Assembly (NCBI GenBank): GCA_964016885.1
Contig: OZ024740.1
Coordinates: 224,068,001-224,132,000, forward strand
Source of the DNA: Eledone cirrhosa
Lineage: Eukaryota
Length of the DNA stretch: 64,000 nucleotides
Direction: 5' to 3'
Both the position numbers and the translations under genes were made by a program. Positions within the stretch are counted from its first letter, which is position 1. Each line of letters begins with the position of its first letter. Shown in pieces: positions 13,584 to 62,043 of the stretch. A model generated the notes under the pieces. It did no database searches and was not told where the DNA came from. It saw only the letters and a program-made list of their open reading frames with translations.

Positions 13584-14110
13584 CAGGATGGATTCAGTTT
13601 GAAACTGGTTAGACCATTACTCAACAGAGTATTCACTACTAGGGGTAGTAGAGTATAGTTATATTATGAAGAGTTAGGACCTCGACGGCTGAGCCCTTGC
13701 CATTTCAATAGCCAGTTCCAGACTGATTGCCAAAAGACTTGGTAGTTAACTGACTGTATCATCAGGAGGAGTGGTTTGTCCAAATAAGGGCATACATTGT
13801 TTATCCAATTGTAAAATCTCTTCACAAAAGTGATGTATTCTAACAGTGTGGTAGTGGTTGTATGTATAGATACCTGATTAAGTGATTGTTTATATGTATG
13901 TGTGTGTGGCTATATTTGTGTTCAAACGTATCTGCCTGGTCAACTTGAGATAGAATAATCGTGGAGACGGGGGAAAATATATATTTGTTGGGAAAATATA
14001 TTAGGGTGTGTATGTGTCTGCTCCAGCAGGCATGGTTATCACGACCTTCAGGGAACTGGTCTACAGAATAAGGCGTCAGTCTTGGGAGCAAATCACCCTA
14101 ATCAAAGAAT
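13584..14110 (-). mobile_element. PLE pLTR-like element with partly degenerate hammerhead
   Basis: Minus strand: CTGATGA at 13765-13759, stem II agtcagtt/aactggct, GAAA at 13706-13703. Homologous to the 55328-55465 element and abuts (TA)n. The right boundary is approximate. Confidence 0.55.
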
Positions 14111-14287
14111 AGTAGAAGCTAACTGAATGGGAGGTATATTTGTCAGTTAAGTGACAACTAATTTCTTAGTTATCTGAAATAACCAAGAACAGCCACTCAA
14201 TTCACCAGCACACATAAGCACTTGATGAGACAACAAATATGTTATTTTTACAAGGTTGAGTAAATTGAGGAATTTGGTTATTATTCA

Positions 14288-14470
14288 GGGCAGTGGGCTG
14301 GCAGTATCAGTAGAGCATCAGACACCATGCTGTGTAGCATAGAGTTATGGTACTTTACATTCTGAGTTCAAATCCTGCCGAGGTTAGCTTTGCCTTTCAT
14401 CGTACAGGGTTAATAAAATACTGTACAGCACTAGCATCATTGCTGGCCTTGTGCCAAAGGTAGAAACAAT
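14288..14470 (+). mobile_element. tRNA-derived SINE (family A), full length
   Basis: A-box-like TGGCAGTATCAG, B-box GAGTTCAAATCC, core and tail; ATTATTCA on both sides (14280-14287, 14469-14476). Confidence 0.85.
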
Positions 14471-15329
14471 TATTCAAATAAGCTAATACTGAACTTTCTT
14501 AATAATTCACATACAAAAAAAAAACTATGCACAGATATATTTTAAAAGAAAACATTGTTGATAACCATTGCATGGATGAAATCAATAGTAAAATAACTAT
14601 TTAACATTTAGTTTAATGAAAAGCTCATGAGTATGCACGTTTAGCCTACTAGCTGGTGCAGTTAAAGTAAAATCTATTGGAATGTATTAGTACATAAATC
14701 ACTTTGAGTTTGTGGTGGTGATTATATTTCATTTACTAAAAGTGGAATAGGTTGAGTGGATAATTACTATTTATTAAGCAATGTAATGGGCCTATGTTTT
14801 ACTTAGGTATGTATATTTCAAGCAGATTCATGGCACGCGGTCAGGTGCATATAGCTATTGATATATCTGTAGTGTAGTGCTAGTCTGGTTGTTATTTCAA
14901 TGCTGCTATCATAAAAAATATATTGTGGTATATACCCCTTTAGGACTCATTTTATGTGACTGAATGGTAGATGTGCAGTTTGGGTAGGTGTAAGATGAGC
15001 TACTTTTGTACTGGTATTATAAGCAAATAATTTTGTTTAATGATGGTATGTGTGTTTTGGTGTGACAATGTCGACTCATGTGGTTCAATAAGAGCTAGTT
15101 ATGTATGTATTTATGTGTGCTAGTGAAGTTTGCTGATGAACTTTGTGGGGAGTTCTGTGTGCTGTTTGAGTCCTCTATTGAACTTTGTGTGGAGTTGTGC
15201 TGCTCGTTTGTGCATAAGTGCTCTTTAGACTTGGATATGTGTTTGCTAGTATGGATACATAATAGTGTGTGCAAATGTACTATGATAACCTAGGGAGCCT
15301 ATTGCTGTGTGTATATGTACAATGAATAT

Positions 15330-15780
15330 TGGAAAATGTTTCTTACTCTTCTGGATTGTGAGATACGTTTTGTAAATCCAGTGTTTGCATCCTTTTTATT
15401 TAATAATTGTACCATGAACAACAACATTTGGTTTGTGTCATCAGAGTATAAATTGCATGGGCGGTATCCTCTTGTATAAGATTTAGCCTTGGACAAGCGA
15501 CTCCAATTCAGTTCACAGGTGATGTTGTTGTCATGGAGATCCCAAATATGGCTAGATAGTGTTATAGCATTCCTCCGGGCTGGGCTTCTAAATATATGTT
15601 GGTGTTGGAAAAACCTTCTTAGGCGGTTAATCCAATGTAGGGTTTGGTGGTATGTTCTGCCATAATGTTTCCCTTGTACACGAAGTTCTGTTGCCAGCAT
15701 TTGTTGTTTAAAGGACAATATGTTTTATTTATGCAATTACATTGCCTGGAAACTTCCTCCCTGAGGTCAAAATGGTGTCT
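15330..15780 (-). mobile_element. Penelope-like element 3' remnant (GIY-YIG endonuclease), same type as 52573-54500
   Basis: CNCINKTYCPLNNKC..VYKG..YIGLT, LSSHIWDL..W..Y..PCNL..LLNKK; frameshifted. Confidence 0.8.
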
Positions 15781-59023: not shown

Positions 59024-60035
59024 TGATATGTGGTGACAGTCGAGTTTGCAATTTTCAACTGTATATATATATATATATATATATATATATATACGGGATA
59101 ACAGGTTATCGTTATAGGCAGTCCACTTAGATGTAGATGTACTTCAGTTAGAGTACCAGGATGGGGCAGTAATGTCTATAATTATCTTGTCAGCCCATAA
59201 AACAATCCCATCTTTGCTGTTGTTTATTCTTTCGGACCAAACAATTATATCTACATATCTCATATTAGCACTCATGATCTCTAACAGATGAACTTAATTC
59301 TAAGTACATTATCTTATTACTCCTACACTCCTTGAAATCTTATTTTCTTAATATTATTATTATGATCATCTCAATGTGTCCCTAATTTTATTCATCATGT
59401 TCTCTCAATTTACCATGCATACTTTATTGTTTTTATTACTTTTATTATCTCTATTATTGTTATTATTGTTGTTATTATTGTCTTATTTATACACTATTTG
59501 TTATTGATTTTGTGAAAACTAAACCCCCATGATTCGAACTAACAATCCCAACTTTTAGAATAGGCCACCTTTACATACCGAATCTACAACTTCACTTCAT
59601 ATCACATAAGAACCATATATCTCTATACACTCACTCTGTCAATCTCACTAAGTTGATACAACGAAAATACTTATCTGTCAAACTATAAATCAATCTCCGG
59701 TTTATTGCTAGTGTGCTTTTAGACCTACAGCACACTTATATCCTTCATAATTACTCCTAAACCCTGACTCCAAGTACATTTTATCAGTTATCTCTTCACC
59801 CATTTAATACTACATCTAATGTACCCTATAGTAGTTTTCACATGTCAATTTCAGACATATGTATCATATCAGTTCGTTTACTATGCTAGATTTATCATTA
59901 CACTCTATTTCTCACTTATATTGATGTTATTATTTTAACTATTCAGTATCTAGTTATTTTATTATTGATATTATTGTTCTGGTCTAACACCACTCTTCTA
60001 TAAAAGCCATGCCTTGAATATTTTCCACACTCCCG

Positions 60036-60151
60036 CACGCTCTGATGAAACGACTGGTTATAAACAAAGTATTGGAGTTCGATTGACGCAACATCAATCG
60101 ATTAGCGAACTCTAGACCTACCAGATCAAAGAAACAATTGTCAGCAATGTG
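60036..60151 (+). ncRNA. Type I hammerhead ribozyme with very long stem II
   Basis: GCU-CUGAUGA-[~82 nt including cuggu/accag, gaguucg/cgaacuc, auuga/ucaau]-GAAAC-AAUU-GUC/AGC; AATAAA at 60152-60157. The stem II base is imperfect. Confidence 0.65.
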
Positions 60152-60209
60152 AATAAAGCCCTTATTGTATAGTCAACCATGTCACTCTTCTTTCTTGAAT
60201 TATTATATA

Positions 60210-61519
60210 CAGGGTGTGGACGATATTTGTTCGCAATTTTCAACTACTAATTTTATGCAATTTTGTTTTACTTCCGTTGTCACTCTTGTCTTCATAAAAA
60301 CAGTGACTATATTTCCATTATTTATTTTCAGAATAATTGATGATGATTAATTTTGAACCTCCAAATTTGTAGATGAGACACGGAGTTCTTCTTGGAATCT
60401 GCACCGGGAGGACAAATAAGGAAAGTTCAGACTTTCTCATCGTCAGCAGGAGAATGGTGGAAAAGTTCAGAAAGGAATTGGAAGATTCAGGATTCGACTA
60501 CGAAGCAACATCAGAGTGGAAAACACATGATCGACGATCTGACGCCTTCAGAACGCCCGAGTTCGTCGCTGAAGTTCAGGATATCATCAACAATGAACCT
60601 AGTAAGTCGATGCGTGCCATTGCAAAGGAAAGGAGAAAGGCGTGGATGAAAAGCTCATTAGGCTGGTGGTACATGAAGACATTCACCACGTTTTACACAA
60701 GATGAGGAAAGGACAATTTCTGTCAAATGCGAGGCAAGAAAAGTGACTGAAGCACGCAAAGAAGCTGATCAGCAAGTTGAAACACCTACTGGAGCCAGAG
60801 ATGCTGTGGTTTTTCTCCGACGAGAAAAACTTCTGCCAAGACCAGAAGATCAACTCCCAGAATAACAGGTGGCTCGCTGTTTCATCCAAAGACGTGCCCA
60901 GAGTCATGCAGACAAAGTTTCCAGCGACAACATTGGTCTTAGGTGTCGTCAGCAGTCAAGACGACATCATCCCACCTCAATTCTTCCCTGAGGGCCTCAA
61001 GCTGAATACCGATGGCTATATCCGCGTTCTGGGCGTTATAGTAAAGCCCTGGATTAACCAGGTAGCTGCAGGTAAGCCATACGTGTGGCAGCAAGACTCA
61101 GCGTCCTGCTATACCAGCCGAAAGACCCTAGCCTGGCTGTCAGAGAACTTCGTCGACAACACTTCACCTGACATCTGGCCTCCCAGCTCGCCTGACTGCA
61201 ACCCCCTCGACTTCTTTGTGTGAGGCGCAGTGGAACGAGACACCAATAGATCTAGCTGCAATACGAAAGACGATCTGAAGGCGAGGATCAAAGGTGCCTT
61301 TAGGGGCCTAAATCGGGGGACAGTGACGAAGGCCTGTAGCTGGTTCCGAGGCCGCCTTGAGGCCGTCATCAAAGCCAATGGCGAGTTCATCGAGTGACAT
61401 CGAACGAACCAGTCATGAAGACAAACTGACCCAAGTTTGATAAATATATCTTAAAAATTAAAACTACCGTTTAATATTCCTAGACAGTAATCTTGCGAAC
61501 AAATATCGTCCGCACCTTA
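60210..61519 (+). mobile_element. Tc1/mariner transposon, DD37D (maT) family, full length but decayed
   Basis: 27-bp TIRs at 60210-60236 and 61493-61519 (3 mismatches), TA flanks. Catalytic motifs FSDEKNF, QQDSA and SPDCNPLD, with 37 residues between D2 and D3; frameshifts and stops. Confidence 0.93.
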
Positions 61520-62043
61520 TATATATATATATATATATATATATATATATATATATATATATATATATATATATATATATATATATATATATATATATAC
61601 ATATACATACACACATATATATATATATATATATATATATATACATAAAGTTAATGAGATATCATTTAAGTTAATCCAGCTACAGTTTACGAGTACTCTG
61701 TTTCGACGATAGTTTTAAAGTTCAGCGTTGCTTGACTCAACAAGAAGTTTTCTTAGTTGGGTGGCCGATTCAAGACAGTTCTTAGGTAAATGTTTCTTGG
61801 CGTAATAATGGAAAATGAGTGAAGAATAACGTGTTCGACTGTACAATAGGGTTTATTAAAAGTATTAACAATTGTTTCATTAGTCTGGTTTGTCTAAAAA
61901 GCCCTGTTTGCAAGATGCTACTTCACTCGATTTTACTTACAGCTGATACCCAACCAAATCATCAGAATACTGATATGTGTACCTCATACAGTGCGCTAGT
62001 ACTGAATAAAAGTACAAGAATAGAAGCAATTATAATGATAGTA

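Follow-up and report, generated by a model that had tools for sequence, protein, structure and literature searches.

A twin bulged hairpin at the 3' ends of Hydra-clade Penelope-like elements is a candidate signal for internal starts of reverse transcription

The stretch of DNA analysed here, referred to as the window, is 64,000 nt in length (G000:C1:224068001-224132000; Eledone cirrhosa contig OZ024740.1) and lies within an AT-rich animal genome of 3.0 Gb. It carries six copies of a GAGTRCT-like heptamer close to (TA)n runs. Placed by the motifs of their proteins, these heptamers belong to the 3' ends ('tails') of many divergent Penelope-like elements (PLEs) of the Hydra clade; all of the families (denoted by letters) descend from one clade, though they are not one family. 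Judged from covariation, the heptamer forms the 3' side of a conserved hairpin with a bulge, RCUC-stem...stem-NN-GAGY-RCU, and in copies that read through into the open reading frame (ORF) a second such hairpin stands just beyond the usual end. The reading favoured here, with a probability of about 0.7, is that each hairpin likely binds the reverse transcriptase (RT) of the element, fixing an internal start 6-9 nt on its own 5' side.

All six heptamers of the original prediction were found at the positions and on the strands given for them. Counted by the junction rule used in this study, the distance from heptamer to TA run is 45 nt at 13634, 43 nt at 41871, 45 nt at 48339, 43 nt at 54561, 45 nt at 55379 and 44 nt at 61698. 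Across the genome, GAGTRCT-N42-46-(TA)6 gave 82,275 matches, mostly from family A, relative to 7,148 with a backwards control (a count in which long TA runs make single sites count several times). Most of family A drops out when CV is demanded after the heptamer, and with this family largely excluded there were 9,685 matches relative to 195 in the control, from at least 8 families with unlike spacers. The positional peak that had been foreseen is present in an unselected sample of 80 stretches, each of 10 kb and placed at regular intervals (800 kb; 1,279 TA flanks). Among the 70 GAGTRCT sites that have a TA junction within 150 nt, 26 are at 43-47 nt (binomial p ~3e-20, a value that treats non-independent copies of the same family as independent) and 10 form a second peak at 60-62 nt. 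The claim that the spacing is nearly fixed holds as a description of the mode (43-46 nt in 8 of 19 families) but fails as a rule, family medians ranging from 30 to 73 nt.

Several other details of the prediction were borne out. The spacers are poorly conserved, only 2 of 78 pairs of 36-nt spacer ends being alike beyond 99% of shuffles, and the suspected kinship among the six applies to 13634 and 55379, which are 73% identical over 113 nt. The pattern is not the artefact of a single family, as ORF N-termini are only 20-60% identical among 11 families. Of two looser cases, the one at 47351 is a true member with an intact hairpin, at a spacing of 61 nt (60 had been given), while the one at 62568 lacks both a hairpin and a TA run within 113 nt, is without relatives among the sampled loci, and is probably a chance match. 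Hammerheads had been noted upstream of three of the six heptamers, and are indeed present, but at four: in full at 13634, 48339 and 61698, and as a 3' half at 55379. The sites at 41871 and 54561 are 5'-truncated, and the insertion to which the latter belongs has its hammerhead at the opposite end (49324-49190).

The view that the heptamer belongs to a cis-acting signal of PLEs with hammerheads, linked to the (TA)n junction, is judged to be right. The elements have a single ORF, with an RT followed by a C-terminal GIY-YIG domain and no IFD (window ORF 54504-52573; translations of loci L356 and L357). The ORFs contain LKDHK, which is also present in Hydra entries of the supplement of PMC8557442, together with DKT, RWR/RWK, a CxCX5C linker, CxxC and CxH. 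Locus L357 carries RWR, DKT and LKDHK; RW(R/K) was seen in 11 families; and the CxCX5C linker, CxxC and CxH, with no CCHH, were found in the window ORF and in L356. There are 103 ORF homologues at E<=1e-20, and a Pfam search with the window ORF gave no name. Tailed ends are found on the same strand, 1.1-1.7 kb downstream of GIY-YIG ORF ends, at loci L010, L019, L194, L207 and L040 and in the window (15756-15326 to 13634); among the 21 ORF ends examined, most of the others met other TA runs or tail-less ends first.

Type I hammerhead cores, predicted from core motifs and from stems found by pattern and by eye, stand upstream of the tails in the 3' region of these (TA)n-inserted elements, some with the U3-A8 core described in PMC4209133. 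An Rfam search of the window returned no hammerhead match, even at 13684..13765, and its 66 matches up to E=1 were all under the gathering score and mostly microsatellite or inverted-repeat noise. The hammerheads of loci L001, L010, L063 and L357, which have the U3-A8 core and stem II insertions of 50-100 nt, were likewise missed by Rfam. Family A ends gave 32,013 matches, nearly all entering TA, and 127 that enter an N3-S-N-S non-TA pattern. These loci also contain an abundant short interspersed element (SINE) that we take to be octopod-like.

Support for the hairpin comes mainly from covariation. Shortly after each of the tail-less family ends listed is the sequence ACTC, complementary to the GAGT of the heptamer and accompanied by a 2-nt bulge, and the inner stem changes in step (TACT/AGTA, TGCT/AGCA, CAGTT/AACTG, CGT/ACG, CGGAGT/ACTTCG). 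For a quantitative comparison, 146 ends were picked without demanding an inner stem and clustered by spacer, families being the 19 clusters of at least two copies. Their 57 inner-stem pairs comprise 46 Watson-Crick, 5 G-U and no A-C, while 20,000 rounds of shuffling the 3' arms gave a mean of 22.4 and a maximum of 39 Watson-Crick pairs of 57. Over all 37 clusters, 70 of 111 pairs are Watson-Crick (shuffle maximum 60). A descriptor of the hairpin matched 45 times in the 800 kb sample, 34 of these with a TA run 20-70 nt downstream, compared to 63 of 259 for bare GAGYRCT; its complement gave 0 matches, and swapping RCT for seven other endings gave 80, of which 14 were near TA. The first pair covaries too, because the descriptor also picked up families with GCTC/GAGC, a compensatory change. 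Loops of 3-100 nt are tolerated. One GCTC/GAGC GCT family, with spacers of 69-77 nt, was noted at L061, L065, L243 and L247.

Other explanations of the motif were tried and rejected. If it were a remnant of hammerhead stem III (which ACTC/GAGT also forms in several Hydra hammerheads), the 5' arm would not be expected to follow TA-rich letters, instead of GAA, in nearly all families, nor the first pair to be G-C in many of them instead of the invariant A15.1-U16.1. Coding constraint (GTR = Val) does not apply to a motif located in the untranslated region (UTR) upstream of ATG, often after a TGA frame. A palindromic DNA site, GAGTACTC, is contradicted by the common variants GAGTGCT, GAGTTCT, GAGTACC and GAGCACT and by the covarying 5' arm. 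A short hairpin, RGYAY-NGA-GTRCT, suits families A, B and E; it breaks down in C, I, J and G, in which the pairing to the upstream arm is kept. The heptamer at 54561 might be mistaken for a chance antisense match in an ORF, but it is actually the inverted tailed end of the same insertion.

The second hairpin was seen only in read-through copies, in which a pseudo-long terminal repeat (pLTR) continues into the ORF. The layout is hammerhead, site 1, hairpin 1, spacer, site 2, hairpin 2 and ATG, with hairpin 2 beginning 35-87 nt upstream of the first ATG. In one of the descriptor matches, a family A copy that does not enter TA, hairpin 2 (GCTC, 4-bp stem, bulge, GAGC ACT) lies 6 nt beyond the usual end and is followed by the ORF start. 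A first search for read-through copies (24 loci) found no common continuation because the true one starts with TATCTA, outside the pattern used. When ORF N-termini were instead sought by tblastn in the unselected sample, with no motif selection, six families with an upstream pLTR were recovered. Hairpin 2 occurs in five of these (A, D, Q, R and S), with a wobble and an altered ending in family D and an ending in TTA in family S; the sixth, L, has a variant. A pattern of both modules matched 974 times in the genome (27 in the control). A Hydra ORF follows in the examples fetched for families A, B, C, E, F, N, T and U, but not in 5 of 16 extra regions.

Some side observations concern the same modules. 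To judge from the many frames still open over 758 aa among 150 scored matches (9,177 candidates), family L seems to be the youngest of the Hydra families; its second hairpin is reduced. Units of 58 bp, composed of hairpin 1 and the spacer start of family A, make up a satellite of at least 9.7 kb (G000:C1:14,234,974-14,244,665; L327-L355). At L434 and L435 there is a direct tandem of a single hairpin 1 module without an ORF.

The ends of copies fall close to the two hairpins. When 114 TA junctions of the unselected sample were placed on 15 precursor regions, 91 lay 4-12 nt 5' of either hairpin, with 32 at exactly -6 of hairpin 2 and 32 at -7 to -9 of hairpin 1. No end lies past the start of hairpin 2, and just 3 lie between hairpin 1 and -12 of hairpin 2, where other TAT sites of the spacer are hardly used. 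Most end sites start with TA(T) and could pair with a primer; a TA step at -6 to -10 is present in 12 of 13 site-2 decamers. The short constant distance is the one from an end to the next hairpin, while 43-45 nt is the commonest gap from hairpin 1 to site 2, perhaps favoured by the geometry of a dimer.

The ends also pair in a non-random manner. Among 24 head-to-head pairs in the sample and window, 20 join a tailed to a tail-less end, 4 join two tail-less ends and none joins two tailed ends, with 2 more pairs unclassified (p ~7e-4 relative to random pairing, two of the four tail-less pairs reusing an already paired end). Contigs of three runs, compared with family A, show the same two end places; one run is maybe from the same organism and the others supplied 3 and 4 contigs, and they are not counted as support.

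Similar structures were found by eye in other animals. In File S7 of PMC8557442, four of six Hydra consensus sequences carry the hairpin (a coral, two from sea cucumber and a sea louse). In Hydra-2_Amil and Hydra-2_Ajap, a hairpin 1 of the GCTC/GAGC ACT form stands 24-25 nt from the end, and Hydra-1_Ajap starts with both hairpins, 35 nt apart, shortly before the ATG. In Hydra-1_Crog, hairpin 1 contains one mismatch and stands 42 nt from the end, and the consensus starts 6 nt upstream of a hairpin 2 whose third pair is C-G. A metagenome scan gave 111 loci, of which 4 have CTGANGA 50-250 nt upstream, and no common family was seen; this is taken as background and lends no cross-species support.

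A mechanism consistent with these data can be proposed. The template would be a read-through RNA carrying both hairpins. The GIY-YIG domain would nick both strands of the (TA)n target. Each nicked strand would prime one of two RT molecules, which probably form a dimer on a single RNA, with assistance from the TA-like hexamer at each site. An RT starting at site 2 would copy the spacer and hairpin 1, i.e. the tail, leaving the heptamer about 45 nt from the junction, and one starting at site 1 would produce a tail-less end; in each case the hairpin that positions the start would stay uncopied. If the two complementary DNAs (cDNAs) met head to head, a fold-back insertion would result. The wider proposal is that a duplicated bulged RNA hairpin, occurring from cnidarians to molluscs, echinoderms and crustaceans, may seat a pair of telomerase-related RT subunits on a single RNA. 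Each subunit would take one strand of a doubly nicked (TA)n as its primer, and both ends would thus be written at once. It is put forward tentatively, at slightly under even odds.

Alternatively, the hairpins may be DNA or cDNA signals for the GIY-YIG endonuclease (EN), which would cut the donor or an intermediate just upstream, so that the ends are resolution cuts. Tails have been ascribed to EN-mediated resolution (PMC8557442), the tail of the D. virilis Penelope is needed for EN recognition (as cited in PMC11167929), and the TA-like hexamer at each site resembles the target. This is nevertheless unlikely, as the family-level excess of G-U over A-C pairs (5 vs 0) fits a sense single strand, loops of 3-100 nt are tolerated, and the ends of the Poseidon element match the places where its RT starts on RNA in vitro (PMC11167929). 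Somewhat less probable again is that the hairpins direct cleavage or termination of RNA 6-9 nt upstream, giving two RNA 3' ends that then undergo ordinary target-primed reverse transcription. The same end positions would be expected, but the presence of a tailed and a tail-less end in most paired insertions is easier to obtain from one RNA carrying both sites, and internal initiation has been shown in Poseidon (PMC11167929).

The mechanism first suggested for the heptamer, in which a protein bound to it measures 43-45 nt downstream to set the end, is improbable. It could draw on the recurrence of a 43-46 nt gap among unrelated spacers, which dimer geometry may also favour. The heptamer is, however, one strand of a hairpin, the family spacings vary by more than twofold while the tailed end keeps to about 6 nt before the second hairpin, and tail-less ends lie upstream of the heptamer altogether. 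The least probable alternative is that the hairpins do something else (translation, promoter activity or RNA export) and that the adjacent TA microhomology alone sets the ends. The closeness of hairpin 2 to the first ATG and the TA steps of the site-2 decamers would suit this, but the neglect of other TAT sites in the spacer and the same offset at both hairpins speak against it.

A number of points weigh against the preferred reading, that of RT binding at each hairpin. With regard to the hairpin itself, the families share ancestry, so that the shuffle p values overstate independence, and at the level of copies G-U exceeds A-C by just 27 to 16. Folding of single natural copies gave stem-1 probabilities of at least 0.5 in 7 of 15 cases for hairpin 1 and in 8 of 15 for hairpin 2; since this support is mixed, protein binding may be needed, or some copies may have decayed. 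With regard to the second hairpin, a search for read-through copies carrying it was negative in J, H and C2, which make up half of the six families of the window. All 30 loci chosen by protein alone belong to family L, and none of the 30 has a canonical hairpin 2, although 20 have hairpin 1; the minimal GCAC/GTGC stem 9 nt beyond the end (pair probability 0.98) was recognised only afterwards. Two of the consensus sequences from other animals do not fit well, Hydra-1_Obim being without a recognisable hairpin and Hydra-1_Amil having a partial one (PMC8557442). As to the ends, 10 of the 15 precursors were picked by motif pattern, 12 of 114 ends are at -14 to -18 of hairpin 1 and 11 are elsewhere. 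Junctions are uncertain by 2-3 nt owing to the TA-like letters of the sites, microhomology alone could attract ends, and Poseidon start sites are without homology to the target.

Within the window, the first of the six sites is the tail of a family H element (related to family A) at nt 13584..13654 on the minus strand, where hairpin 1 is followed by the spacer to (TA)n. Its 5' arm starts from 13654, the inner stem has 5 bp, the 2-nt bulge is at 13636-13635 and the heptamer is at 13634-13628, with one stem substitution. On the same strand, upstream of this tail, is a type I hammerhead (13684..13765; CTGATGA 13765-13759, GAAA 13706 to GTC 13684), and about 1.7 kb upstream a decayed GIY-YIG end of a Hydra ORF remains (15326..15756, minus strand; tblastn E 4e-9). 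A 5'-truncated tailed end of family C2 (41822..41913, minus strand; heptamer 41871-41865) is 79% identical to L034 and has lost its hairpin 5' arm to a TA run upstream. A family M fold-back insertion occupies 47072..47417 on both strands, with a tailed end on the plus strand (intact hairpin 1 at 47335-47357, 61-nt spacer) and a tail-less end on the minus strand (hammerhead 47170-47129). The family B 3' end that follows (48288..48502, minus strand) has its hammerhead at 48502-48422, hairpin 1 at 48360-48333 and a 45-nt spacer, and maps 6 nt before hairpin 2 of the family B precursor.

A complete family J insertion (49129-54611) consists of a tail-less end with a hammerhead on the minus strand, a truncated ORF and an inverted tailed end on the plus strand. 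The tail-less 3' end (49129..49324, minus strand; hammerhead 49324-49318 and 49201-49190) is 100% identical over 212 nt to L002, where hairpin 1 starts 7 nt beyond the end. The 5'-truncated ORF (52573..54504, minus strand) is open for 643 aa, with LKDHK, RT, CxCX5C linker, GIY-YIG, CxxC and CxH. The inverted, 5'-truncated tailed end of the same insertion (54497..54611, plus strand) has the heptamer GAGTTCT at 54561-54567 and a 43-nt spacer. Before its final 212 nt, the 3' UTR (49340-52573) contains a degenerate (TA/CA)n expansion of about 2 kb. Next is a family A tailed end (55328..55470, minus strand) with a 3' half hammerhead at 55447-55425, hairpin 1 at 55399-55373 (one 5'-arm substitution) and a 45-nt spacer, ending 6 nt before the precursor hairpin 2. 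Its partner within that insertion is an inverted tail-less family A copy (55471..55538, plus strand) that ends 8 nt before hairpin 1. Close by, a family L hairpin 1 (55573-55594, GAGTACC) reads through to a variant second hairpin near 55642 (55573..55655, plus strand). The last of the six is a family D 3' end (61648..61965, minus strand), with a hammerhead at 61965-61867, the heptamer at 61698-61692 and a 44-nt spacer; its hairpin 1 has a 100-nt loop and a mutated 5' arm (61803-61800).

Further Hydra ends were noted at 10912-10981, 8380-8439, 43607-43680 and 62934, and include both ends, tailed and tail-less, of a family Q fold-back, a tailed end of family N2 from which the heptamer has been lost, a family G tail (GAGTGGT, 37-nt spacer) and a family D tail-less end. 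Broken RT fragments of a different PLE type (57620-58698, minus strand; KVHK...LRPII with an insertion, weak Pfam match to RVT_1) are presumably Naiad-like. Decayed ORFs of two other kinds, with endonuclease plus RT (862-6932 and 21025-28292), we take to be those of non-LTR (long terminal repeat) retrotransposons, and a fragment at 60747-61223 is presumably a mariner-like transposase.

Hydra elements, their tails and two internal starts were already known. The twin hairpin was not found in the portions covered of the literature searched (including PMC8557442, PMC3846280, PMC4993307, PMC4209133 and bioRxiv 10.64898/2026.07.22.740005; subscription papers and Repbase reports lay outside the search). 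How PLEs choose their ends, why one end only has a tail and why copies fold back are long-open questions. The 2024 Poseidon study described two internal starts and no signal, whereas here a candidate signal is defined by covariation and is duplicated where the two ends fall. It gives a sharp prediction, namely that moving the hairpin should move the start. If correct, docking of two RTs would account for the Penelope tail, fold-back insertions and the pLTR alike, and would provide a portable signal of about 25 nt that sets the start of reverse transcription. Because PLE RTs are the sister group of telomerase reverse transcriptase (TERT), an RT-binding helix that sets a template limit would bear on the origin of telomerase RNA. 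In practical terms, consensus sequences of Hydra elements need the read-through 5' region if they are to cover the uncopied second hairpin.

The 3' stem-loops of stringent long interspersed elements (LINEs) and SINEs, and the hepadnaviral epsilon, are small RNA stem-loops that the element's own RT recognises and that position initiation. In LINEs there is one stem-loop and the insertion includes a copy of it; epsilon uses its bulge to direct protein priming. The closest relatives are the Hydra elements of Craig et al. 2021 (PMC8557442), which share the LKDHK, DKT, RW(K/R) and CxCX5C linker motifs, a C-terminal GIY-YIG with CxxC and CxH, a hammerhead in the 3' part, (TA)n targets and inverted 5'-truncated copies. 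The tails described there are 30-40 nt, compared to about 70-160 nt here (hairpin 1 to hairpin 2); in the present genome there are up to tens of thousands of copies, and long stem II insertions or the U3-A8 core are found in many of the hammerheads. The portions of that paper considered describe neither a hairpin nor an end signal.

In Poseidon PAc (Frangieh et al. 2024, PMC11167929), the protein, a predicted dimer, cuts and extends both target strands, and reverse transcription starts internally at two sites bounding an optional tail. RNA up to +172 is required although a main start is at +111-118. The Hydra elements would share the two internal starts that bound a tail and the need for RNA 3' of the start, together with the use of both target strands and probably the dimer. 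For Poseidon no binding motif was defined, and the starts are inside the ORF, at an AC-rich stem-loop with no target homology (PMC11167929), whereas in the Hydra elements they would be located within the 5' UTR, where each coincides with a TA-like hexamer and has a conserved bulged hairpin after it. The template boundary element of telomerase RNA (PMC4993307) is likened by layout only, being a template-adjacent, RT-binding helix with conserved bases at its foot that limits the copied region. That element lies 5' of the template and stops synthesis, whereas the Hydra hairpins lie 3' of the copied region, are duplicated, and would set the start.

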